Positions 12,908 to 29,510 are shown, numbered from the stretch's first letter. The stretch is DNA of 64,000 nucleotides from an uncultured Clostridia bacterium (GCA_947627935.1 CANQXY010000001.1:15495-79494), one strand, 5' to 3'. The notes: generated by a model not told the origin, from the letters alone. Numbers and translations: made by a program.

Positions 12908-13259
12908 GGGGGTGTAATGGTTTCGACATTATACTAGAAATATAAATAGCGAGTAGTGGATTCTCGTTGGCCACTTTAATAAACGGGAAAATAAATATAA
13001 ACGCTGATAAACAAGAATTAGCATTTGCTGCCTAAGAGCGGCAACGTCTTACTAGATGTCCCACACATTTAGTAAAGGCGATTATTTAGTGGGAAACAAA
13101 GCTACTTTTGCTTTAGGAGTAGTGGGTATTTATAAAGATATATTTAATTTGAGTATGTTTGTTTACGCAAATTAAATGAAAATAAATAACAAACTGCACT
13201 CGGAGAATTTTATATGGAAGGTATAGTGGACAGGAGTTCGATTCTCCTCACTTCCACCA
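12908..13259 (+). ncRNA. ssrA: tmRNA (transfer-messenger RNA, SsrA)
   Basis: The 5' GGGGGUG pairs with the 3' CACUUCC-A-CCA in a tRNA-Ala-like acceptor stem with G3:U70. A T-arm GGACAGGAGTTCGATTCTCC is present. An internal tag ORF ends ...GATAAACAAGAATTAGCATTTGCTGCCTAA (…DKQELAFAA*). The length is 352 nt. Confidence 0.9.
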
Positions 13260-18010: not shown

Positions 18011-18232
18011 ACATATTTAAAATTCATACTTATTTAATATAAAAAGGGGATAATAGATTAATATTATTCTCTTTTTTGTAATATTTTTGTTACAAACTGG
18101 TAATGAAAAAGTAATGAAAATAGGCGGTTAATTTATTGACTAAAAAATATTGTAATGATATACTTATTCTGATAAAAATTGACAAAAAATACTATAGAAA
18201 AAATATAATAATTAACAAAAGAGGTGGAAACT

Positions 18233-19981
18233 TTGAAATTAAATAAATTAATATCAATAACAATAATCTTTACAATTTTTTCAAGTATTATTTTTAATTT
18301 AATAATAAGTTCCAATACTTATGCTGTAACTCAAAATATAAGCACAAGCATTGATAAAATCGATGATAAAAAATATCCAGGAGTAAAGAAACTAATAAAA
18401 GAATTACAAAAAAATCATCCAAAATGGAAGTTTAAAGTATTATATACAAATTTGAGTTGGAATACTGTAATTGCAAATGAATATGTTGGGCATGGAAAGT
18501 CTCCAAAAAATCTATCACCAGCTAATATGAATAATTATTCAGGAGATTGGATTTGCTCTATTTGTGGAAATAGAAAGTATGATAGTGGTAGTTGGGTATG
18601 TGCATCAGAATCTGCAATAAAATATATGATGGATCCTAGAAATTCATTAAATGAGTTAGATATATTTCAATTTCAAGAATTAACATATGATAATTATAAT
18701 GAAAAAACTATAAAATCAATGGTAAAAGAAACTTTTATAGATAATACAGAATGTATAAAAGCAATAAAAGATGCTTCAAAAACATATAATGTAAGTCCTT
18801 ATTATATAGTTGCTAGAATATTACAAGAACAAGGAAAATCTGGATCAGTATTGACAAAAGGTAAAGGTTATAATGGAAAATATAAAGGCGTATATAATAT
18901 ATTTAATATAGGTGCAAATGGAAATGGAAAAAGTAGTGTTATTGAAAATGGATTAAAAACAGCGCAAAAAAACAAATGGACAAGTTTAGCACTATCAATA
19001 AAAGGTGGAGTTGAATTTATTTCAAAAGATTATATCAAAAAAGGACAAAATACATTATATTTCCAAAAATTTGATGTAGAAAATTCTGATAATAGTTTAT
19101 ATTGGCATCAATATATGCAAAACATATTAGCTGCTCAAGAAGAAGGAGAAAATTTAAGAGAAACATATCTAAATATAGATGAAACACTAAATAGTGAATA
19201 TACATTTATTATACCTTTATATGAAGATATGCCAAATATAGCATGTGCTAGACCTTCTACTACATCTTCAGTGGTTTCTACTGATTTAGTTAGAGTAAAT
19301 GTAAATACTAATATAAAATTAAGAAAAGAACCTAATGGAAGTTCAATTAATGAATATTTATATAAAGACGAAATAGTTACAAGATTAGAAAAAGCAACTA
19401 AAAAAGTAGGTGGAACATACTGGGATAAAATTATGAAATCAAATGGAATAGTTGGATATGTTGCTAGACAAACAGATGAAAATGAAAAGTATAAATTATA
19501 TTTAGTTCCTATAAATGATGAAACAAATGAAAACAATGAGGAAAATAATTCAAATAATGAAATTAATAATAACTCAAATGGAAATAATGCAATTAGTAAT
19601 AAAAAGGTTAAATTAGATAAAGATACAAGTATTGTTACTATAATCCCTGGAACTAAAGTATCTGATATTATAGAATTACTTGGAAAAGATACAGTTATAG
19701 TTGATGCAAATAAAAACAAATTATCTTCATCAAAAATAGCTGGAACTGGATGTAGGGTAGATGATAAATATACAATTGCTATGCTTGGAGATTTAAATGG
19801 AGATGCAACAATAAATTCAGGTGATTTACTACTAATGAAAAAATATTTGTTAGGAACTCATAAATTTACAAAAGTTTCTGAAAATGTTGCTATAGATGTT
19901 AATAATGATGGAAATGTAAATTCAGGTGATTTATTAATGATAAAGAAACAATTATTAGGAACTTCTAAAATCTCACTATAA
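18233..19981 (+). CDS. Secreted cell-wall hydrolase: GH73-like N-acetylglucosaminidase domain + SH3b domain + C-terminal type-I dockerin (two Ca-binding repeats)
   Basis: A TTG start lies 5 nt after the RBS agaggtgg, followed by a signal peptide (...NTYA). The glucosaminidase-like region is YYIVARILQEQGKSG...YNIFNIGANG. The SH3b region is KLRKEPNGSS...GYVA. The dockerin repeats are DLNGDATINSGDLLLMKKYLLG and DVNNDGNVNSGDLLMIKKQLLG. Confidence 0.7.
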   Translation: MKLNKLISITIIFTIFSSIIFNLIISSNTYAVTQNISTSIDKIDDKKYPGVKKLIKELQKNHPKWKFKVLYTNLSWNTVIANEYVGHGKSPKNLSPANMNNYSGDWICSICGNRKYDSGSWVCASESAIKYMMDPRNSLNELDIFQFQELTYDNYNEKTIKSMVKETFIDNTECIKAIKDASKTYNVSPYYIVARILQEQGKSGSVLTKGKGYNGKYKGVYNIFNIGANGNGKSSVIENGLKTAQKNKWTSLALSIKGGVEFISKDYIKKGQNTLYFQKFDVENSDNSLYWHQYMQNILAAQEEGENLRETYLNIDETLNSEYTFIIPLYEDMPNIACARPSTTSSVVSTDLVRVNVNTNIKLRKEPNGSSINEYLYKDEIVTRLEKATKKVGGTYWDKIMKSNGIVGYVARQTDENEKYKLYLVPINDETNENNEENNSNNEINNNSNGNNAISNKKVKLDKDTSIVTIIPGTKVSDIIELLGKDTVIVDANKNKLSSSKIAGTGCRVDDKYTIAMLGDLNGDATINSGDLLLMKKYLLGTHKFTKVSENVAIDVNNDGNVNSGDLLMIKKQLLGTSKISL

Positions 19982-19996
19982 AGTAGGGAGGAAAAA

Positions 19997-21331
19997 ATGA
20001 AAAAAAGTATAAAAATATTATTAATTTTAATTTTTGCATTCGCTTTTTTATCAATTATATCAAGAGTAGAAGCGGCAAGTGCATCAATAAGTGCAAGCAA
20101 GTCTACTGCCACAGTAGGAGATAGTGTTACTATAAATATATCTTTTAATGCTGCTGCATGGAATTTAACAGTTAGTGGTGCAGGATTATCTAGTTCTTAT
20201 GCAGATGTTACTTCAAATGGAGAAAATGCAAAAACATCTAAATCATTTAAATTAAATACATCGTCTACTGGAACAAAAACAGTTAAATTAACAGGAGATG
20301 TAACAGATGGTAAAACAGGTGTTACAACACAAGTAAACAAATCTGTTACTGTAACTATAAATAAAAAAGAGACAAATAACAACAATAACAACAATAACAA
20401 TAATAATAATAATAATAACGGCAATGCATCTAATCAATCAGAAAATAATACACCTACAACTCCTGAACCAACATTTACATCTGTTAATGAAACTGTTTAT
20501 GCATTAAGTAAAGCAAATGTAAGAAGTTCATATAGTACAAGTTCTTCAATAGTAGGATCATTAAAAGTAGGAGATAGTGTTACAAGAACTGGAATTGGAA
20601 GTAATGGTTGGAGTAAAATAACATATAATGGAACTACTGCATATGTAAGTAGTGGTTTAATAACAAAAACAAAACCAAAAGAAGAAGAACCACAAGAAAA
20701 CGAGAATAATGACGATGAGAACGAAGAAAATGAAAAAACTAAACTAGTATTAAGTTCATTAAAAATAGAAAACTATGATTTAAATCCAGAATTTTCTAAA
20801 GATATATATGAGTATGAAGTAAATATAGAAAATGATGTAGATGATTTAAAAATAGATGCCATATCAGATGACACTGATGTTACAATTGAAATTGATGGAA
20901 ATAAAAATTTAAAAGTTGGAGAAAATAATATAACTATAACAATTTCAAAAGAAAAAACAAAAGAAGAAACAATATATAAAATAAAAGCAATCAAAGAAGA
21001 AAGTAATAATGTAGAAGTTGTTGCAAAAATAAATCAAGATTTATTAAATGAAGAAATAGATAGAACAAATAGCAATTTAAAAGTAAGAGAATGGACAATA
21101 AGAGGAATAATTATATTTGTAACAATACTAATTATAATAATATTTATATTAAGATTTTTTACAACAAGAGAAGATAATCAAGATTATGAATATAATTATG
21201 TTAATATTAAAGAAAAATTTAATGAATTAAATGATGACTCAGAAGTTAAAGATGAAAATGAAAATCAAAGATTTGATTATGAAGAAGAAAGTCCAAAAAT
21301 AAATAAAAGAAATAAAGGTAAACATTTTTAA
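19997..21331 (+). CDS. Surface protein: signal peptide, Ig-like domain, 15-residue poly-Asn tract, SH3b domain, cadherin-like beta-sandwich domain, C-terminal TM anchor
   Basis: The RBS is gggagg. The poly-Asn tract is NNNNNNNNNNNNNNNGN (about 20374-20422). The cadherin-like region is LSSLKIENYDLNPEFSKDIYEYEV. The C-terminal anchor is IIIFVTILIIIIFIL. Confidence 0.65.
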   Translation: MKKSIKILLILIFAFAFLSIISRVEAASASISASKSTATVGDSVTINISFNAAAWNLTVSGAGLSSSYADVTSNGENAKTSKSFKLNTSSTGTKTVKLTGDVTDGKTGVTTQVNKSVTVTINKKETNNNNNNNNNNNNNNNGNASNQSENNTPTTPEPTFTSVNETVYALSKANVRSSYSTSSSIVGSLKVGDSVTRTGIGSNGWSKITYNGTTAYVSSGLITKTKPKEEEPQENENNDDENEENEKTKLVLSSLKIENYDLNPEFSKDIYEYEVNIENDVDDLKIDAISDDTDVTIEIDGNKNLKVGENNITITISKEKTKEETIYKIKAIKEESNNVEVVAKINQDLLNEEIDRTNSNLKVREWTIRGIIIFVTILIIIIFILRFFTTREDNQDYEYNYVNIKEKFNELNDDSEVKDENENQRFDYEEESPKINKRNKGKHF

Positions 21332-21444: not shown

Positions 21445-21608
21445 ACAACGAATTCGTTTGAACTTTATAGAACAGATATATAAATATCATTCTGAAAAAG
21501 AATGGTATTTTTTTATTATTTTTATTTTCAGTATGAATTACATCGTCCTCGAGTTTTGAACATTGGTCAAAACTCATAGTGGGTTAGGACTTGTGACGAG
21601 ATCAAAGT
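21445..21608 (+). repeat. About 160-nt repeat (copy B) immediately 3' of tRNA-Thr, homologous to the sequence 3' of ssrA
   Basis: It is about 85% identical to 13260..13417, including the terminator hairpin (tcattctgaaaaagaatgg + T-run) and the GAGTTTTGAACATTGGTCAAAACTC box. Confidence 0.6.
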
Positions 21609-21819
21609 TTGTATCTGGCGAAAAAATATAAAATTACTTTGAAAAATTTTATCAAATATAAATTTGTAGTGTTTACAATTGAAGAAATTGAGAGAAATAA
21701 AATTGAATTGTATTTATTCAATAGTGTAAAAATAAATATTATAAATTTCAAAGAAAAAACACTATTTTTTGTCAAAAAAAGAGAGAGCTTTAATAAAAAC
21801 TCTCTCTGTTCCTATCTTG

Positions 21820-21966
21820 CTAAAAGCCATATTCATCGTGCTTCTTTTTTCTTGCTTCAAATGGGTCTTTTTTCTGTTTTTGAGTCTCTTTCATCCACTT
21901 TTGGTATTTCTCCCAATCTTTTTGTCTTTCTTCTGCTCTACGATTTCTTGGTAAATTGACTTTCAT
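21820..21966 (-). CDS. Small highly basic protein (48 aa: MKVNLPRNRRAEERQKDWEKYQKWMKETQKQKKDPFEARKKKHDEYGF)
   Basis: Hand translation of the reverse strand. The RBS aggagg lies 6 nt upstream. A perfect terminator hairpin (aaaaagagagagcttt-attaaag-ctctctcttttt) lies directly downstream. The overlapping forward ORFs 21609..21959 and 21769..21954 are considered spurious. Confidence 0.4.
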   Translation of the reverse strand: MKVNLPRNRRAEERQKDWEKYQKWMKETQKQKKDPFEARKKKHDEYGF

Positions 21967-22087
21967 GATGGAACCTCCTTAATTTTATTTTCCTTATTGG
22001 GAATATATATATAATACCATATATTTAATATATTTACAACTTTTGTTAGAAATAATACCCATAAAATGATTTATATTTGTATAAATT

Positions 22088-22140
22088 CACTAAAAGAGAA
22101 AAGTTGTAGATAACTACGACGTCCGCTCCATTAAGTAAAA
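22088..22140 (+). repeat. Putative right-end remnant of the tRNA-Thr-associated mini-element (AAGTTGTAGATAACTACGACGTCCGCTCCA), related to 14660..14700
   Basis: 24 of 30 nt are identical to the ssrA-side motif. Upstream it shares TGTATAAATT/TGTATGATAAATT. GCTCCA resembles the tRNA-Thr 3' end (AGCTCCA). Confidence 0.35.
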
Positions 22141-22556
22141 TCGTTGGACTTTGGCAAAAGTATTGATAAATCAACTGTAAAGGGTTGTTTTTTTGATGCC
22201 TTTAATTTTAAACGAAAGGATTGTGTGAGATGATTACTGTAATCAAAAAGGAAATTGAGTTAGAATTGAACAAAGAAAAACCAAAATTGATTAAATTAGT
22301 TGCAGTAAAAAGTGATAAAAATTTTTCAATAACTAAACAAGAAAATTATAAAAGTGGTGCAATAATAAATAAAGAAAAATGAAAAAATAATAGGAAAATT
22401 TCTGTTCAAAATGATTTTTGTATTCCATTGGTACTCTATCAAGCACTGAATTTTCCTCTATAGTCAAAATAATAAACGAATAAAAAAATATTTTATGGTT
22501 TAAATATTATGAAATAAATTAAAGATAACCGGCAACAACATTGCCGGTTTAGAGGT

Positions 22557-22850
22557 TCATTCCACATCAACTTTGTGATTAAGAAACCATCCAGTTATTT
22601 TAGCTCCACCTTCATCCCTTACAATAACATATGCCTGCATTATAGAAGCAAAATCTGTAAAGATGCTGAAATCAGAGCAATCTTCTGGATACAAAAGAGT
22701 AATATTATCTATTTCACCATCATAATCTTTTGACCGTTCTAGCAATTTGTTAGATAAATTAATGAGACCAATTTGATGTTGTTGAGATAAATTCTTACTC
22801 TCTTTCCAAAATTGTTGATAACTTAAAAGTTCTTTGGAATTTAATTTCAT
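22557..22850 (-). CDS. Hypothetical protein (97 aa)
   Basis: A strong RBS (ggagg, 6 nt spacing) is present. A hairpin terminator aaccggcaatgttgttgccggtt lies downstream. No motif was recognised. Confidence 0.55.
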   Translation of the reverse strand: MKLNSKELLSYQQFWKESKNLSQQHQIGLINLSNKLLERSKDYDGEIDNITLLYPEDCSDFSIFTDFASIMQAYVIVRDEGGAKITGWFLNHKVDVE

Positions 22851-23207
22851 AAATGTACCTCCATTTAATATTGAAATACTACTGAGTGCAATAAAATTAT
22901 ATCACATTATATTATATAATACAATGAAAAGATAATATAAACTGTACATACTCAAAATAATTTTTCTTCATTCTGTCCTTAATATAATATATTTTATAAA
23001 TATAGGTTTACAATAGATATGTCACACTAAGATATAAAAAAAGAAATACCAATATGATATAATGTTTTTAACCACAAAAACTAATATTGAAAGAAAATAT
23101 TTCCTATGAATAGTATAACATAAGCAATTAATTAAAAGATAAGAGCTAAAATAGCCTAATTTTAAGCTATTTTAGCTCCAAAAGTAATCATACTATCGAT
23201 TTTTATT

Positions 23208-23774
23208 TTAATTATCATTAATTTCAGCCAATTTAGTAGAAAGATTATCTAAATTAACTATATATGTTATATAATCATCTTCTGTTGAAATTACTAGAGT
23301 GTTATCATCTTTTGATACATTTGCATATGTAACATAATTATCTACATTAGTATCATCTATATTAAGTTTTTCTAACTTGGCATCTAATTTTTTTAATATA
23401 TTCTCAAATCTATCAACTATATATAAATTTTTTTCAGCATCTATTGCTATAAAATACATAGATTCAGCTCCTGCAATTTCTGTCACCCATTTTTTAGTAC
23501 TAAAATTATATAGACTTTGCTCATCACTTATATTGATTTCTTTAATAATATATAAAGAATTATTAGATAAAGTATTTTTTGTGTTATCTTCTAATTCATT
23601 TATAGTTTCATTTAAACCATTTACTTGAGCTTGAAGGTCTGCGAATTTTTGAATTTCTGTTGTCTTATCACTGTTAAGTTTATAAATAAATATTCCCATT
23701 ATTATTATTGTAATTATTGATAGTAGTAGAAGAAATATTGATAAATTTATTTTTGTAAATTTTTTTTCTTCCAT
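23208..23774 (-). CDS. Hypothetical membrane-anchored protein (N-terminal TM, coiled-coil, beta-rich C-terminal domain)
   Basis: The 188-aa ORF has the hydrophobic segment INLSIFLLLLSIITIIIMGIFIY near the N-terminus. Confidence 0.55.
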   Translation of the reverse strand: MEEKKFTKINLSIFLLLLSIITIIIMGIFIYKLNSDKTTEIQKFADLQAQVNGLNETINELEDNTKNTLSNNSLYIIKEINISDEQSLYNFSTKKWVTEIAGAESMYFIAIDAEKNLYIVDRFENILKKLDAKLEKLNIDDTNVDNYVTYANVSKDDNTLVISTEDDYITYIVNLDNLSTKLAEINDN

Positions 23775-23952
23775 TTTTACACCAACTTTCTTTTTTAAAA
23801 TAACTTATACAACTGAACTATATCATATATTTTATTTTGTTGTCAATTATATTTAAAATTCACTAAAATTGACTTTAAATAAAAAATATTATATAATATA
23901 TTCATGTTTTTTAAACATTTCAAACATGCATTGAAAGGGGAGTTGCATCATT

Positions 23953-24156
23953 ATGAAGAAATTTAAAAAAATATGTCGGAGCATTATTGTTTTTCTATTA
24001 ATAATTGGCATAAGTATAGTGCCTACGCTGATTTTTAGAACAAGAGATGAAGTGAAAATTCTATTTCGGAAACCTGAATATTGGGCCATTAGTATACTTA
24101 TCTCTGTAATTATCACATGGCAAGTTGTACAGGATATGAACAACTCTAAAAAGTAA
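23953..24156 (+). CDS. Small membrane protein (67 aa, two TM)
   Basis: The RBS is aaagggga. The terminator hairpin aagtgcaaccatgcttctcttgtagagaagcatggt follows. Confidence 0.4.
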   Translation: MKKFKKICRSIIVFLLIIGISIVPTLIFRTRDEVKILFRKPEYWAISILISVIITWQVVQDMNNSKK

Positions 24157-24384
24157 GTGCAACCATGCTTCTCTTGTAGAGAAGCATGGTAATTTTATTT
24201 AAAAATGTTAAATTTTATTGTAATAGATAAAAGTAAAATAATTCAAAAAGTAAATTTTTCTATATTCTTTAATTTAAACTTAAAATATTGAAAAAAACTA
24301 AAACTTATGTTAAAGTAAAAATAATAGTGAAGATCAGTTATAAATTATAACAAAAATATAAAATAAATTAATTTGGAGGTTGTA

Positions 24385-24996
24385 ATGTTAGAAGAATTAA
24401 AAGCAGTTGTTGGTTCTAATGAAAAAATTTTATATGAAGGTAAACCTAATAAAAAATGTTATATTTTTGAAAGTATTTTTAATCCATTATTACCTTTTGC
24501 ATTAATATGGGCATTTGTTGATTTCTTTATTATAGGTTTTTCTTTTTTTATAGAAGGTGATAGAGAAGTATTATTTTTTGCCATTCCTTTTATGTTGATA
24601 CATTTAATGCCTGTTTGGATTTATTTAGGTGGTATTTTATTTGTTGTTAAAAAGTATAAAAATACAGCATATATTGTTACAGATAAAGCTATATATGTAT
24701 CAAGTGGAGTACTTACAGTAAATATTAATACTAAACCTTTTGCTGAATTATCTCATATAGATTTATATAGAGGTATTTTTGATCAAATGTTTAATGTAGG
24801 AGATATAGTAGCAACATCTAATCAGCTAAAACAAAATGGAACAAATACTACTATAGTTATTAATAGTATTTCAGATTATCTAGATGTCTATAATTTAGTA
24901 AAAAAATTACAAATTGATATTTATAGTGATGTAATGTATCCTAATGATAAAAGACCACCAGAAAATCATGGATATAACACACAATATAAAGGATAG
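24385..24996 (+). CDS. Membrane protein with bacterial PH-like domain (YdbS/YdbT, DUF304-like)
   Basis: The RBS ggagg lies 5 nt before the ATG at 24385. There are two N-terminal TM helices, then a ...AYIVTDKAIYVSSG... PH-like region. A terminator lies at about 25011-25045. Confidence 0.6.
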   Translation: MLEELKAVVGSNEKILYEGKPNKKCYIFESIFNPLLPFALIWAFVDFFIIGFSFFIEGDREVLFFAIPFMLIHLMPVWIYLGGILFVVKKYKNTAYIVTDKAIYVSSGVLTVNINTKPFAELSHIDLYRGIFDQMFNVGDIVATSNQLKQNGTNTTIVINSISDYLDVYNLVKKLQIDIYSDVMYPNDKRPPENHGYNTQYKG

Positions 24997-25225
24997 TAAA
25001 TTCTAATATTTTAAACTAAAAGGTACTTGTGCATACAAGTGCCTTAGTTTTTGCAAAACGAAAATACATTGTTTTATTAAAAATATAAAGTAGAATTGTT
25101 TTTAATAACAAAATATGTTATAATAAAAATACGCATTGTACTTTACACAGCAAGTACAGAAAAATTAATAATTTTTTCTGGAGGAGCTGTGTAAGACCTC
25201 CAGAAAATTTTAAGGAGGAAATAGT

Positions 25226-25525
25226 ATGGGTGTTTTTAATTTATTTTCTAAGGATTTTAAGTGTACACATAATGATGAATATCCTCGGTATGAAAAGAAT
25301 ACTAGTCACATTAAATTGGTTGAGCCAAGTGTAGGAAGAATTGTTGAACTTCAGATAACTGAAGAGGATGTACGCTTTGAAAAAATATATAGGAATTCTT
25401 TAAATACCTATGTAAAATGTCTTATGCGGTATGGCGTACAATCTGAAGTAACTGATAAAGGAGTTCGACTTACATTTCCTAATGATGATATAGCAGAGGA
25501 TACACGTAAGATTTGGAGAAAATAA
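25226..25525 (+). CDS. Hypothetical protein (99 aa)
   Basis: A strong RBS (aaggagg) is present. Two tandem hairpins lie in the 5' UTR. No motif was recognised. Confidence 0.5.
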   Translation: MGVFNLFSKDFKCTHNDEYPRYEKNTSHIKLVEPSVGRIVELQITEEDVRFEKIYRNSLNTYVKCLMRYGVQSEVTDKGVRLTFPNDDIAEDTRKIWRK

Positions 25526-25668
25526 TTTAACACAATTATAGTGAGAGGGCTTTAAATGCCTTCTCATTATTTTTTATTTTAGATATTCCTAAAATAACGA
25601 AATAAATAATTAAAACATATAATAAAATATAGCAGTATTATGTTATTACATAGAAAGGAGGTAATAAC

Positions 25669-26154
25669 ATGAGAAATATAAAATGCATTATAATAATTGT
25701 TTTATTAATATTAACAATGGCAGTAGGATATTCAGCATTTGCAACACAGTTAAATGTAAGTGGAACAGCTGAAATTATAGGAGAATGGAATGTAAGGATT
25801 ATTAATATAGAAGCAAAAAATGTTTCTGAAGGTTGTAATCCTGGAGAGCCGCAATATACTAATACAAGTGCAACATTTGAAGCTAAGCTAATAAAACCAG
25901 GAGATTCAATAACATATCTAATAACAATTGAAAATTCTGGAACTATTGATGCAACTTTAGATGATGTAATTTTTAAAGAAGAAGAAAATGGATCAGAAGC
26001 TATTAAATTTACAACGACAGGGATTGCTCCTACTTTAGAACCAGGTGCTCAAACTACATTAAATGTAAAAATTGAATATGATTCAAAAACTACTGAAGTT
26101 CCATCAATAAAAACGAAAACAATAACTGGTATTATAAATTATGTACAAAAATAA
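25669..26154 (+). CDS. Secreted protein with SipW-cognate-type signal peptide (TasA/camelysin-like small beta-sandwich protein)
   Basis: The N-terminus MRNIKCIIIIVLLILTMAVGYSAFATQLNVSGTAEI resembles SipW-dependent signal peptides. The protein is 161 aa and beta-rich. It lies directly upstream of a SipW-type peptidase gene. The RBS is aaaggagg. Confidence 0.55.
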   Translation: MRNIKCIIIIVLLILTMAVGYSAFATQLNVSGTAEIIGEWNVRIINIEAKNVSEGCNPGEPQYTNTSATFEAKLIKPGDSITYLITIENSGTIDATLDDVIFKEEENGSEAIKFTTTGIAPTLEPGAQTTLNVKIEYDSKTTEVPSIKTKTITGIINYVQK

Positions 26155-27368
26155 TGGGAAAAATTTTATTTCCCATTATTTTTAAAACTGGAGGTACAAA
26201 GATTAAAAACATGAAAAATAAAAATATATTACTTATTATAGTTTTTTATCTATTTATAATAATTATATTAAATATTACAAATTATATATTTTATAATGCA
26301 GTAAATACGTTATTTTGGATGCTTATGCTAATTTATTTAATATGGGATATAAAAAATTCATATATAAGATTTAAAAATAATATAAAGTATATTACATATA
26401 TGATTATAATTTCAGCCATTCATATTATTATATATTTATACATTGGATTTTTATTAGGATTTTCAAAGAGTCCATATAGTCATCAAATATTAACAATACT
26501 AATAAATATTTTGCCTAAAATAATTATTATTTTTGGTATTGAAATAACAAGAACAGTAATTGTATTAAGAAATAAAAATAATAAAAAATTATTAGTAGTT
26601 ATAACAATACTACTTATATTAGCAGAAGTAAATTTTAATATGTTAATTACTACATTTCCAGATAAAGAATTACTATTCAAATATATTTGTTCTACAATAA
26701 TACCATTAATAACTTGTAATGTTTTATATACATACTTAACATTAAATTGTTCTTATTTAATAGTAATAATTTATCGATTATGTAAGGAATTAACAGTTTT
26801 TTTATTACCAATTTTACCTAATACAGATTGGTTTGTAACAGGCAGTTTTGAAACATTATTATCAGCAATAATTTATTTTATTTTTAAATATAAATTTTTT
26901 AAAGAGAAAAATCATGTTAAAGAAAAAATGAAAAATTTTTTTGAAGAAATGAGTTATATAATAACATTTATTTTATTATTTTCTTTAATATGTTTTATGT
27001 TAGGGTTATTTAAATACGAATCAATATCAATTCTTTCAAACAGTATGGCTCCTTATTTTAACAGAGGAGATGTTGTTATTTTCAAAAAAATTAATGATAG
27101 TGATTTAAGAAATATTCCCAAAAATTCTATTATTATTTATAGTATAGGAGATAAAAATATTGCTCATCGTATTGTAGACAAAATAGAAAAAAACAATAAT
27201 GTATTGTATCAAACAAAAGGTGATAACAATAATATTTCAGATATGAAATTAGTAAAAATAAATCAAATTAAAGGAGTATATGTTTTTCACATTAAATATA
27301 TTGGGTTTCCATCGATCTGGTTATATGAGTATTTTAATAATGAAAAAGCAGAAGTAAAAATAAAATAA
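26154..27368 (+). CDS. Signal peptidase I (S26, SipW/archaeal-ER type Ser-His) fused to a ~300-aa N-terminal polytopic membrane domain
   Basis: The C-terminal region carries ILSNSMAPYFNRGDVVIFKK (box B Ser), IAHRIVDK (His general base) and TKGDNN (box E). The N-terminal 300 residues are highly hydrophobic with about 8 predicted TM helices. The start may instead be the ATG at 26211. Confidence 0.65.
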   Translation: MGKILFPIIFKTGGTKIKNMKNKNILLIIVFYLFIIIILNITNYIFYNAVNTLFWMLMLIYLIWDIKNSYIRFKNNIKYITYMIIISAIHIIIYLYIGFLLGFSKSPYSHQILTILINILPKIIIIFGIEITRTVIVLRNKNNKKLLVVITILLILAEVNFNMLITTFPDKELLFKYICSTIIPLITCNVLYTYLTLNCSYLIVIIYRLCKELTVFLLPILPNTDWFVTGSFETLLSAIIYFIFKYKFFKEKNHVKEKMKNFFEEMSYIITFILLFSLICFMLGLFKYESISILSNSMAPYFNRGDVVIFKKINDSDLRNIPKNSIIIYSIGDKNIAHRIVDKIEKNNNVLYQTKGDNNNISDMKLVKINQIKGVYVFHIKYIGFPSIWLYEYFNNEKAEVKIK

Positions 27369-27380
27369 GGAGGAAATTTT

Positions 27381-28403
27381 ATGAAAAATGATAAAAAATA
27401 TATTAATATTTTTATTATTAATATAATTATGTGTATAATTGGTATTTCTTGTATAGTATATAATTTTTATATTAATAAAAATAAAGTATCTATTTATAAT
27501 TATAAAATACAAAAAAGTGATGATTATGAGGTTTTATTAAAACCAAATAATTTTTATGAAACAGAAACACTTAAATCTGGTTCTTATTATGCTTCAAATT
27601 CTATTAATAGTTATATTATAAATTTAAAACATGATTTTTTAGGAGATAAAAAAGCTAATTTAGAATATGATTATAATATTGATGCCTATTTAATTGGGGT
27701 TGTAAAAGATAATGATAATCAAGATAAAGAAGTTTGGAATAGAAAGTTTATTCTTAAAGACAAAACTCATGATAAAAAAGATAATATAGATAAAAACTCT
27801 ATCAATCAACAAGTAACTATAGATTATGAGTATTATAATAATTTAGTACGCTCATATGAAAAAACATATGGAATTACAATAGACAGTGTTCTAAAAGTAA
27901 GATTCGATATTTCTTATATTATTAATTTAGATAAATATACTGATAAAGTAGAAGATTTTATAGAATTAGAAATACCAATAACTAGTACAATAACTGAAAT
28001 AAAAGAAAATTATGAAAAGGATACAAATGGAGAAATTATAAAAGAGCAAGAAAGTAAAAAAATAAAAGAAATTTTACTGTATGTTATTGGAGGAATAATT
28101 TTTATAATATCATCAATAATTATTGTATTTATTATAATAAAATATATAAAAATTAAAGAAAAACAATATGATTGGAAATTAAGACGAATTTTGAGATATT
28201 ATAAAGATATAATAATTACTATTAGTAATGAACCAAATTTAGATAATTTAAAAGTAATAAATATATCTGTCTTTGAGGATTTGATTGATTTAGCTGAACA
28301 AACTCAAAAAAGTATTTTATATTATAAAAGTATTAATAGAGAGGAAAGTAAATTTTTTGTTATCATCGATAACTATGTATATGTTTATTTATTAAAAACA
28401 TAG
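27381..28403 (+). CDS. Hypothetical two-TM membrane protein (N-terminal anchor, ~190-aa extracytoplasmic domain, second TM, ~100-aa cytoplasmic tail)
   Basis: The RBS is aaggagg. TM segments are at residues ~10-30 and ~218-243. It appears to be in an operon with the SipW fusion. Confidence 0.55.
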   Translation: MKNDKKYINIFIINIIMCIIGISCIVYNFYINKNKVSIYNYKIQKSDDYEVLLKPNNFYETETLKSGSYYASNSINSYIINLKHDFLGDKKANLEYDYNIDAYLIGVVKDNDNQDKEVWNRKFILKDKTHDKKDNIDKNSINQQVTIDYEYYNNLVRSYEKTYGITIDSVLKVRFDISYIINLDKYTDKVEDFIELEIPITSTITEIKENYEKDTNGEIIKEQESKKIKEILLYVIGGIIFIISSIIIVFIIIKYIKIKEKQYDWKLRRILRYYKDIIITISNEPNLDNLKVINISVFEDLIDLAEQTQKSILYYKSINREESKFFVIIDNYVYVYLLKT

Positions 28404-28415
28404 TAAGGAGAAAAT

Positions 28416-29375
28416 ATGATTGATTGTCATTATGATTTATTAACATATATTTTAATAAAAAAAGATGAAAAAGAATTTCTTAGAAATTATTGTAAAAATG
28501 TTTATAAAAAAGATAATATTACTGGTGGAATTTTTAATTTGTTTTATATGACAGAGCAAGAAATGAAAGAAGAATTAGGAATAGAAAAAAATCAAATTAA
28601 TTTAATAGAAAATTTAAAAGAAGTAAAAGAATATATTAGATTAAATAAAATTATACCAGATAATATAAATTATATATTTGGTATTGAAGGATTAGATTAT
28701 TTAGAAAAAATAGATGATATTGATATTTTGTATTCCTTAGGATTAAGATCTACAAATCCAGTATGGAGTAATAAAAATAAATTTGGAGGAGGGGTAAGAG
28801 CAAATAATAAAGAAGGTTTAACAAAATTAGGCAAAATATTAATTAAAAAATTAGTTAATAAAAAAATTGCAATAGATTTATCTCATGCAAATGAAACTAC
28901 ATTTTTTGATATTATAAATATATGCAAAAAAATGAAAAAAGAGGGAAAAGATCCAATTGTATTTGCATCACATTCAAACGCAAAAAAAGTATGCAATGTA
29001 CCAAGAAATTTAACAGATGAACAAATACTAGCCATAAAAGAATTAGGAGGAATAATAGGAGTTGTATCAATTAAAAATTTTTGTATTGATACAAATGATA
29101 TTTGCAATAAAAATATAGATTATGAGCAGAAATATATTGAAAATATAACTTATATAAAAAATATACTAGGTGGAGTAGATAATATAGCTGTAGCGACAGA
29201 TGATATGAAATATTATTTTATTGATCCAGAGTATTATCAAAACATAAATATATATCCTCATTTTAATGTTAAAGAAAAATTAAAAAAAGCATTAGAAAAA
29301 AATGATTATAATGAAATACAAATAAAAAAGATATTAGAAGATAATTTTAAAGAAAAAATATTGAAAAGGTTATAA
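28416..29375 (+). CDS. Peptidase M19 (renal-dipeptidase family) metallo-dipeptidase
   Basis: M19 signature positions are present: an N-terminal IDCHYDL (HxD), GIEGLD, IAIDLSHAN and FASHSNAKKVCNVPRNLTDEQILAIKELGGIIGV. The RBS is aaggag. The terminator agatgagtaaattactcatctttttt follows. Confidence 0.7.
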   Translation: MIDCHYDLLTYILIKKDEKEFLRNYCKNVYKKDNITGGIFNLFYMTEQEMKEELGIEKNQINLIENLKEVKEYIRLNKIIPDNINYIFGIEGLDYLEKIDDIDILYSLGLRSTNPVWSNKNKFGGGVRANNKEGLTKLGKILIKKLVNKKIAIDLSHANETTFFDIINICKKMKKEGKDPIVFASHSNAKKVCNVPRNLTDEQILAIKELGGIIGVVSIKNFCIDTNDICNKNIDYEQKYIENITYIKNILGGVDNIAVATDDMKYYFIDPEYYQNINIYPHFNVKEKLKKALEKNDYNEIQIKKILEDNFKEKILKRL

Positions 29376-29510
29376 AAAGATGAGTAAATTACTCATCTTT
29401 TTTGATAATTTATATTATTATACTATAAAATTAATAAAATAATGGAAATTTATTTAAAAGTATGATAAAATATCGTATGAAATTATAAAAATAAAAAATA
29501 GGAGATAGTA

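Follow-up and report, generated by a model that had tools for sequence, protein, structure and literature searches.

Fibres of the TasA type, in which each subunit is held to the next by a donor strand, are major biofilm scaffolds, and a standing question is how cells process and assemble them with no chaperone-usher machine. TasA itself assembles by donor-strand exchange (Bohning 2022, as cited in a later paper), and PMC10269814 links the Phe at its P2' position to dependence on the signal peptidase SipW rather than on LepB. In the Tafi system of Haloarcula, pilins are no longer processed and fibres no longer form once the S26 peptidase TafD is deleted, and TafG, a DUF5305 protein, has been proposed to assist TafD (PMC11821415, PMC12337348). 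A preprint dated January 2026 (hereafter the AbpX preprint; 10.64898/2026.01.04.697558) describes abpX loci of bacteria and archaea whose type I signal peptidase (SPase I) has ten transmembrane (TM) helices, and in which genes for minor subunits resembling AbpX, for tip proteins and for a DUF5305 "SPase accessory" are common; the accessory combines a beta-sandwich outside the cell with two TM helices and a domain in the cytoplasm. DUF5305 proteins are proposed as accessory subunits of a fibre-dedicated signal peptidase in PMC11821415, PMC12337348 and 10.64898/2026.01.04.697558, and every mention of DUF5305 in the literature that we searched concerns TasA-superfamily fibres. Here we analyse a locus at positions 25,669 to 29,375 of a 64,000-nucleotide stretch of DNA (hereafter the window) from an uncultured Clostridia bacterium (GCA_947627935.1, CANQXY010000001.1:15495-79494), where four genes lie in a row, encoding proteins A (161 amino acids, aa), B (a fusion peptidase called at 404 aa), C (340 aa) and D (319 aa). 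A first-pass annotation, made from the sequence alone, had presented the four genes as one specialised secretion, fibre-maturation or peptide-processing module that is not a described system. Our analysis favours a narrower reading, to which we assign a probability of about 0.68: A, B and C constitute a self-contained cassette that makes an extracellular TasA-superfamily (AbpX/Tafi-like) fibre on low-GC gut Clostridia.

The conserved A-B-C unit and its secreted subunit

The conservation of gene order was assessed in 80 loci, returned by a scan of one genome per species and then searched with the window's proteins. They come nearly all from uncultured Clostridia, Bacilli or "Tenericutes" metagenome-assembled genomes, a majority of them from rabbit gut. 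All 80 loci have B, 76 have A and 75 have C; the genes invariably stand on one strand in the order A-B-C, and most of the cases in which A or C is absent are contig ends, divergent genes or split genes. A lies directly 5' of B, or of an additional gene that we call X3, in 76 loci; C adjoins B in 75, as it also does in distant relatives, and the trio is kept in relatives whose B is only 25-33% identical. When all neighbouring open reading frames (ORFs) were clustered, the flanks of the trio proved variable, ftsY/UPF0182 lying downstream in about 11 loci with differing genes in between. Co-occurrence, which the first-pass annotation had named as the check on the four genes, is found for A, B and C, and fails for the M19 dipeptidase gene, which lies near the cassette in 1 of the 80 loci. 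The functional module appears to be the three genes A-B-C, with D a passenger that probably shares their transcript in this genome.

In the AlphaFold2 (AF2) model, residues 4-17 of A form a signal helix, residues 18-41 are unstructured, and residues 42-160 make up an acidic Ig-like beta-sandwich whose core has a predicted local distance difference test score (pLDDT) of about 90. The Pfam family DUF7507/CLIPPER_2 (PF24346), which comprises Ig-like domains with a Lys-Asn isopeptide bond, matches A at 30.3 bits against a cutoff of 27, as a partial match over profile positions 13-74 of 105, and weak matches to DUF11, CARDB and M73 were obtained as well. The first core strand carries an Arg in the window's protein and a Lys in many homologs. 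Mature A has an isoelectric point (pI) of 4.50 and 13.7% Asp+Glu (family medians 4.34 and 13.7%); the values for AbpX are a pI of ~4.0 and 14.6% (10.64898/2026.01.04.697558). The fold matches of the A model are chiefly generic Ig-like domains, among which the TasA fibre (rank 4), the Saci_0406 thread, AbpA and chaperone-usher pilins appear at weak scores; AbpX structures are represented among the Protein Data Bank sequences searched but not among the fold matches listed, and their presence in the fold libraries is uncertain.

It is the N-terminus of A that is most strongly conserved. Residues 17-40 have a mean pairwise identity of 68% compared with 55% for the core, a value above that of every 24-residue core window, and among 74 homologs the sequence M-A-V-G-Y-S followed by A-F-A-T-Q-L-x-I/L-N-G-T-A-E-I-x-G-E-W is nearly invariant. 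Positions -6 to -1 relative to the predicted cleavage point hold a Met in 74 of 74, G or A at -3, Tyr in 73 of 74 at -2 and S or A at -1. In the putative donor strand that follows, F2, L6, V8, A12 and I14 fall on one face with a Thr at position 4; position 2 is Phe in 66 and Leu in 8 of the homologs, and positions 6, 8 and 14 are hydrophobic. The corresponding sequence of AbpX is ...LTAIGLTYA↓QWSETLSLSATI... (arrow, cleavage point; supplement of 10.64898/2026.01.04.697558), and in the AbpX fibril W2, L6, L8, A10 and I12 are the residues that dock into the neighbouring subunit, with E4 as a calcium ligand; in the AbpX monomer the donor extension is disordered, as it is in our model of A (10.64898/2026.01.04.697558). 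An hhalign comparison of the A family with AbpX gives a probability of 66% (E 5.5e-5, 125 columns), a score that includes the hydrophobic leader and is possibly inflated by it. The alignment pairs Y21 with Y(-2), S22 with A(-1), F24 with W2, T26 with E4, L28 with L6 and V30 with L8, and it also aligns a core PGD...N-G-T-I-x-A motif. Because this register of A matches the leader and donor strand of AbpX, we infer that A is cleaved after Ser22 and that its donor strand starts at AFATQL. Within the window, the leader-plus-strand motif is found in A only. Extra copies of A were seen in a few of the other loci, in tandem in L036 and L052 and on the opposite strand in L020 and L041, and suggest subunit diversification.

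Further proteins of related loci bear a similar N-terminus. X3 (~295 aa) lies between A and B in 22 of the 80 loci and is absent from the window; it combines an A-like motif (...M-A-N-G-Y-S↓I-L-K-T-K-L-N-I-S-G) with a CBM_2-like module (30.8 bits in L048, cutoff 24). The A-type N-terminal motif is also shared by proteins of ~770 aa whose genes adjoin that for DUF5305 in distant loci. One of these, a 762-aa protein 3' of the DUF5305 gene in L081 (8171-10459; ...I-G-Y-A↓S-Y-T-Q-N-I-N-T-T-G), contains a Hint/intein-N-like module (TIGR01445, 25.7 bits, cutoff 24.5) and Ig-like domains, and could be a self-processing tip protein. Another is a 784-aa PARCEL/DUF285/LRR surface protein in L083 (2874-5228; ...I-N-I-A↓F-S-A-V-N-A-N-L-S-I-S-G), where the gene order is DUF5305, large protein, small subunit, fusion peptidase. 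The sharing of a leader and strand by otherwise unrelated passenger domains is what would be expected if these proteins were tip or adhesin subunits incorporated into one fibre, and the AbpX preprint (10.64898/2026.01.04.697558) makes the same prediction of co-assembly for abpX loci. The CBM_2-like second subunits, present in about a quarter of the loci, suggest that such fibres may tether gut bacteria to plant fibre.

The fusion peptidase and its membrane domain

Residues 266-388 of B match TIGR02228, the archaeal/SipW-type signal peptidase I family (E=1.9e-21; 76.6 bits, cutoff 51.85), and the first-pass annotation was right to see in B an S26 peptidase, namely a dedicated Ser/His SipW-type enzyme fused to an 8-TM domain beside a likely TasA-like substrate. 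Conservation was measured in 117 full-length representatives of B that are mutually below 50% identity. S297, H338, R339, G356, D357 and D363 are 100% conserved among them, and the SNSM, AHR and TKGDNN motifs from which the peptidase had been recognised lie in fully conserved columns (S297, H338, R339, G356, D357). B does not reach the SipW equivalog NF046067 (62.1 bits, cutoff 190), and its length of 385-404 aa and eight additional TM helices are in excess of the SipW architecture (~190 aa, one or two TM helices).

Full-length homologs of the fusion, about 380 aa long, number at least 327. Searching with a profile restricted to the N-terminal domain (N-domain) found relatives down to 25-30% identity, the complete ones being ~375-390 aa long and many of them carrying S26. 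When 1.84 billion cluster representatives were searched exhaustively with HMMER, 1,210 matched at E<=0.001, of which 712 matched at E<=1e-10, which puts the family of the fusion peptidase at no fewer than 1,210 clusters at 50% identity; most of the matches listed are ~370-400 aa long with the N-domain at the extreme N-terminus, and the shorter ones resemble gene fragments. On the evidence of these searches the joining of an 8-TM domain to a signal peptidase is a real, old and stable architecture, because the family is large and mostly full-length and the domain keeps its place at the extreme N-terminus.

The AF2 model of B has the eight helices that had been noted from the sequence and, in addition, the anchor helix of the peptidase, making nine TM helices in all, plus a short C-terminal helix; pLDDT values in the N-domain are 80-93, and the charges of the loops fit a topology with the N-terminus inside and the peptidase domain outside. 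By sequence the N-domain belongs to no named family: its first ~260 residues (261 searched alone) have no Pfam or NCBIfam match, PF02517 (CPBP) matches none of 28 diverse family members at E<=10, and the N-domain profile finds nothing above noise among Protein Data Bank (PDB) sequences. Compared by fold, the model as a whole recovers SipA and SEC11A for its peptidase part, together with APH-1 and TMEM147, and the closest structural match to the N-domain is SpdC/LyrA (6u0o), which we take to be a non-catalytic scaffold. APH-1 and TMEM147 are related to CPBP proteins (Pei et al. 2011, as cited in a later paper). By its predicted fold the N-domain is a divergent member of the CPBP/Rce1 superfamily. 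The first-pass annotation had suggested comparing it with exosortase/archaeosortase or CPBP folds, and it is the CPBP comparison that held. An exosortase or archaeosortase was rejected for want of a conserved Cys or His; no exosortase is among the fold matches of B, and A ends in ...GIINYVQK, without a C-terminal TM sorting signal of the kind found on exosortase substrates.

Two residues of the N-domain equal the catalytic Ser297 and His338 in their conservation: Glu130 occurs in 100% and Arg133 in 99% of the 117 representatives, and Gly98, Asn118, Tyr194, Pro219 and Pro222 each exceed 90%. E130-x-x-R133 lies in the fourth TM helix, the location of the EExxxR motif in Rce1 and myxosortase, with a single Glu and a spacing shorter by one residue. 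CPBP motifs 2 (FxxxH) and 3 (HxxxN) are missing from the N-domain, and at no N-domain position is His or Cys the majority residue in the 117. Judged from close homologs, C179 and H110 might have been catalytic; they were rejected because distant members do not conserve them (C179 in 29 and H110 in 51 of 117). The residue pattern resembles that of the presumably non-catalytic SpdC more closely than that of active Rce1, and the strict conservation of Glu and Arg argues for a specific function that the domain would serve. Two extracytoplasmic loops are conserved as well, G98...G102-F (26445-26468) and P219-I-x-P222 (26808-26819); in the model they pair as a small two-stranded sheet at the outer face, on the side of the peptidase domain, and this sheet could be a docking surface.

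Gene layout and surroundings

ORF calling returned A, B, C and D at the coordinates that the first-pass annotation had given (Table 1). Terminator-like hairpins lie on both sides of the row. The downstream one, an AT-rich hairpin at 29374-29404 that the consensus terminator scan overlooked, has a 13-bp stem (free energy -13.4 kcal/mol, z -5.14), and none of 200 shuffled sequences folds as well. Because these hairpins bracket A-D, the four genes are probably transcribed together as a single unit here, as the tight spacing also supports: the B-C and C-D gaps are 12 nt each, the ribosome-binding sites are GGAGG for C and AAGGAG for D, and A has AGGAGG 7 nt 5' of its ATG. A promoter scan was uninformative in DNA this rich in A and T (64 sites, 56 expected). 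A, B and C are single-copy within the window, and the public annotation puts no name on any of the four proteins.

Table 1. Positions of the features of the locus in the window, with two examples of X3 from other loci
Feature	Position	Strand	Basis or remark
Upstream hairpin and T-run, terminator-like	25538..25570	+	Consensus scan: 13-bp stem, then TTTTTATTTT; upstream unit boundary
Gene A, 161-aa precursor, putative fibre subunit	25669..26154	+	ORF, ribosome-binding site, Pfam, AF2 model, synteny
A signal peptide, residues 1-22	25669..25734	+	Ends in M-A-V-G-Y-S cleavage box; predicted cleavage after Ser22
A putative N-terminal donor strand, residues 23-40 (AFATQLNVSGTAEIIGEW)	25735..25788	+	Conservation, AbpX register
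Gene B, CPBP/Rce1-like 8-TM domain and SipW/archaeal-type signal peptidase I	26154..27368	+	
B 8-TM domain, residues 20-254, own sequence family	26211..26915	+	CPBP/Rce1-like predicted fold
B Glu130 codon; Arg133 codon	26541-26543; 26550-26552	+	Invariant pair, TM4 of B
B residues 255-404, ninth (anchor) TM helix and extracytoplasmic Ser/His peptidase domain	26916..27368	+	
B Ser297 codon; His338 codon	27042-27044; 27165-27167	+	Peptidase domain of B
Gene C, DUF5305 protein, 340 aa	27381..28403	+	PF17231 E=5.4e-21
Gene D, M19-family dipeptidase, 319 aa	28416..29375	+	PF01244 Peptidase_M19 E=2.9e-46
Downstream hairpin (29374-29402) and U-run, intrinsic-terminator-like	29374..29404	+	Unit boundary before ftsY
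X3 examples	L006:5109-5996; L048:4994-5899		

The family assignments in Table 1 bear out the M19 domain that had been read in the fourth protein and the description of C as a two-TM protein: it is a DUF5305 protein with TM helices at about residues 9-30 and 228-253. The start of B needs correction. Codons 1-19 as called (MGKILFPIIFKTGGTKIKN, 26154-26210) are missing from most homologs, which start at the residue equivalent to Met20, and residues 1-18 have a pLDDT below 50; the sole Shine-Dalgarno-like sequence for B is GGAGG at 26190, 5' of the ATG at 26211. The true start is probably Met20 (ATG 26211), and therefore the overlap of A and B in the original gene models is probably not real. The gene callers of the public assemblies use the long form of B, from 26154.

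The cassette had also been placed in a "tRNA-Thr island", and for this we found nothing. The 3' end of the tRNA-Thr gene is not repeated within the window, no mobile-element gene family was matched among the scanned ORFs between tRNA-Thr and the cassette, and in locus L050 the upstream and the downstream neighbours are both the same as in the window. The GC content of the cassette (18-20%) is below the ~25% of the host as estimated from the window, a small difference that is explicable because its membrane proteins are rich in Ile, Leu, Phe, Lys and Asn. The stretch of about 4 kb from tRNA-Thr to the cassette (21445-25540) holds small ORFs on both strands without a family match, save one that encodes a bPH_2-domain membrane protein (24373-24996), and no integrase was found in it. 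Just 5' of tRNA-Thr (18224-21331) are genes for two secreted-type proteins, of which one contains a type I dockerin (E 1.7e-16) while SH3_3 and a cadherin-like domain are present in the second; they suggest gut Clostridia of the cellulosome-type, fibre-degrading kind, which fits the CBM_2-like subunits of related loci. Downstream of the hairpin that follows D come ftsY and then a UPF0182 gene. Elsewhere in the window, a tmRNA gene at 12908-13259 encodes the tag peptide ADKQELAFAA.

Proposed mechanism, alternatives and known systems

We propose that the precursor of A would be exported by Sec and held at the membrane through its signal peptide, where the extracytoplasmic Ser/His domain of B would cut it after the G-Y-S box, at Ser22. 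The site has an aromatic P2' residue, which the general LepB-type peptidases would be expected to handle poorly. Cleavage would free the amphipathic strand AFATQLNVSGTAEI, which could then enter the beta-sandwich of the next subunit, so that A would polymerise non-covalently by donor-strand complementation. The 8-TM CPBP-like domain of B and protein C would together provide a membrane platform that holds or recognises the signal anchor and couples cleavage to assembly, a role analogous to that of the accessory subunits of the eukaryotic signal peptidase complex. In related loci, the CBM_2-like proteins of ~295 aa and the LRR/PARCEL or Hint/Ig proteins of ~770 aa may join the fibre as adhesive subunits, and D would be an unrelated cytoplasmic enzyme encoded on the shared transcript.

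Several observations weigh against the view that A-B-C makes such a fibre. The match to TIGR04088 (SipW-cognate signal) that the first-pass annotation had expected of A was not obtained at E<=0.1, Peptidase_M73 (PF12389, camelysin-TasA) stays below threshold for A at 13 bits (cutoff 22.5, E 0.093), and sequence searches with A or the A-family profile against TasA, AbpX and PDB chains gave nothing above noise. The share of the hydrophobic leader in the hhalign score belongs here as well, as does donor position 4, which aligns with the calcium-binding E4 of AbpX and is Thr in 69 and Ser in 5 of the 74 homologs, and acidic in none. Because this position is Thr or Ser in every homolog, a calcium bridge is not expected in A, and its donor strand is likely to be a calcium-independent variant of AbpX-like assembly. 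Finally, no cell-wall anchor, sortase or regulator is conserved beside the cassette in the 80 loci, unlike at the bacterial abpX loci of the preprint.

A could instead be a secreted or surface Ig-like adhesin or envelope protein of the CLIPPER_2/DUF11 type that does not polymerise, with B its private peptidase, C a helper and the conserved N-terminus simply a recognition element. We regard this as unlikely. The conservation of A runs 18 residues past the cleavage site with alternating hydrophobic residues in the AbpX register, which would be needless in a recognition element; the A-type N-terminal segment recurs on otherwise unrelated multidomain proteins of related loci, as expected if these co-assemble; and the combination of a signal peptidase with DUF5305 has so far been reported for donor-strand fibres. 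Far less probable still is the proposal that all four genes, the M19 dipeptidase included, form one specialised secretion, maturation or peptide-processing module. In its favour are the tight spacing of the genes, each with its own ribosome-binding site, between terminator-like hairpins, and the recurrence of the arrangement in a second assembly, L086. The A of L086 is sequence-identical to that of the window, however, and because of this identity the assembly probably comes from an organism that is the same or nearly so, and it does not count as independent evidence. Beyond the rarity of the M19 gene among the 80 loci, it is not near the cassette even in the closest relative (L001, B 74% identical), and D has no signal peptide in its sequence and therefore would act in the cytoplasm, away from an exported substrate. 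What survives of the specialised module is its three-gene part, composed of the peptidase fusion, its substrate and the two-TM partner; for peptide processing we found no support.

A different question, within the fibre model, is whether the N-domain of B is itself an enzyme, either an atypical glutamate intramembrane protease acting on the signal peptide or, as in LnsB, part of a transferase acting on the new N-terminus. The CPBP fold has precedents for both, in the sorting protease myxosortase (PMC11980579) and in the N-acyl transferase LnsAB (PMC7387801, PMC13559823). Glu130 and Arg133 are as invariant as the catalytic Ser and His and sit where Rce1 and myxosortase have EExxxR, which speaks for a second active site. 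The domain nevertheless has a single Glu with a shorter spacing to Arg, lacks FxxxH and HxxxN and any conserved His, Asn-His or Cys, and is matched by the Pfam CPBP model in no family member; its closest structural match, SpdC/LyrA, is itself presumably a scaffold. We consider a second enzyme doubtful. Equally speculative is a wider proposal in which the CPBP-like domain is an active partner of the peptidase: Glu130 and Arg133, with Asn118 and Tyr194, might bind the signal anchor laterally and hand the site over to the peptidase, or might clear the signal peptide or modify the N-terminus. If so, B would be a "pilin maturase" with two sites, a gate at the membrane for donor-strand polymerisation. 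It would then represent a functional class new to the CPBP/APH-1 superfamily, and bacteria would have in it an analogue of the multi-subunit signal peptidase complex of eukaryotes.

Compared with described systems, the A-B-C cassette has most in common with the abpX loci, which share with it a small acidic secreted subunit with a leader and an N-terminal amphipathic strand bearing an aromatic residue at position 2, an adjacent dedicated SPase I, a neighbouring DUF5305 accessory, additional subunit-like and tip proteins at many of the loci, and an occurrence in Bacillota as well as in archaea. The peptidases are compared here by description, the ten TM helices of the preprint corresponding to eight plus one plus the short C-terminal helix in B. 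The terms CPBP, CAAX and Rce1 do not appear in the text of the AbpX preprint, and the extra TM domain of the SPase is not identified there. The two differ in that donor position 4 is Thr in A and Asp/Glu in AbpX, where the acidic residue is strongly conserved among AbpX-like proteins (10.64898/2026.01.04.697558), so that calcium-bridged docking is not expected in A; mature A has 139 aa and AbpX 163 aa, and their sequence relation is one seen at the hhalign level. The cassette is also minimal, without the LPXTG/SLH anchor, sortase, histidine kinase and cyclic di-GMP genes of abpX loci. We have not filed A as a member of the AbpX family because its position 4 is not acidic and the homology of the subunits is only moderately supported. 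The Tafi system likewise sets donor-strand subunits (the TafA/TafE pilins) beside a dedicated S26 peptidase and a DUF5305 gene, and differs in that it is archaeal, TafD has four TM helices, an N-terminal peptidase domain and no CPBP-like domain, and its pilins use the twin-arginine translocation pathway, whereas the leader of A is of the Sec type and has no twin arginine.

The tapA-sipW-tasA operon of Bacillus subtilis resembles the cassette in devoting a Ser/His signal peptidase of the archaeal type to a fibre subunit. The cleavage site of TasA is T-W-A↓A-F-N-D and that predicted for A is G-Y-S↓A-F-A-T, each with a small, an aromatic and a small residue followed by x-Phe. SipW, in contrast, has ~190 aa and no 8-TM domain, B fails the SipW equivalog (62 against 190 bits), the accessory protein is TapA rather than DUF5305, and A is much smaller than TasA and below the Peptidase_M73 threshold. 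With the CPBP/Rce1 proteins (type II CAAX proteases; SpdC/LyrA, myxosortase and LnsB, and more distantly APH-1), B shares the 8-TM Rce1-like predicted fold; it differs from them in the absence of a PF02517 match, in its single-Glu E-x-x-R, in the lack of FxxxH/HxxxN and in being always fused to a signal peptidase, a fusion that we did not find in the literature searched. The partners in the eukaryotic signal peptidase complex (SEC11 with SPCS1/2/3) are unrelated to those of B in sequence and fold, and A-B-C is dedicated to one substrate, not general. With its three genes the cassette is a compact bacterial version, widespread among uncultured gut Clostridia and Bacilli of low GC, and offers a simple system for studying the roles of the multi-TM peptidase and of DUF5305, with the CPBP-like fold and its Glu/Arg pair as concrete mutational targets. 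The first-pass annotation took the locus for something not yet described; clusters of a signal peptidase, DUF5305 and a TasA-superfamily subunit have in fact been described for archaeal Tafi and for abpX loci, and we class the cassette as a bacterial variant of AbpX/Tafi-type machinery for fibre biogenesis, a system type of recent description. To what is known of that type our analysis adds the assignment of the peptidase's membrane domain to the CPBP/Rce1 fold with an invariant Glu/Arg pair, the size of the fusion family and its distribution in the gut, a donor strand that is likely to be independent of calcium, and the CBM_2-like second subunits.

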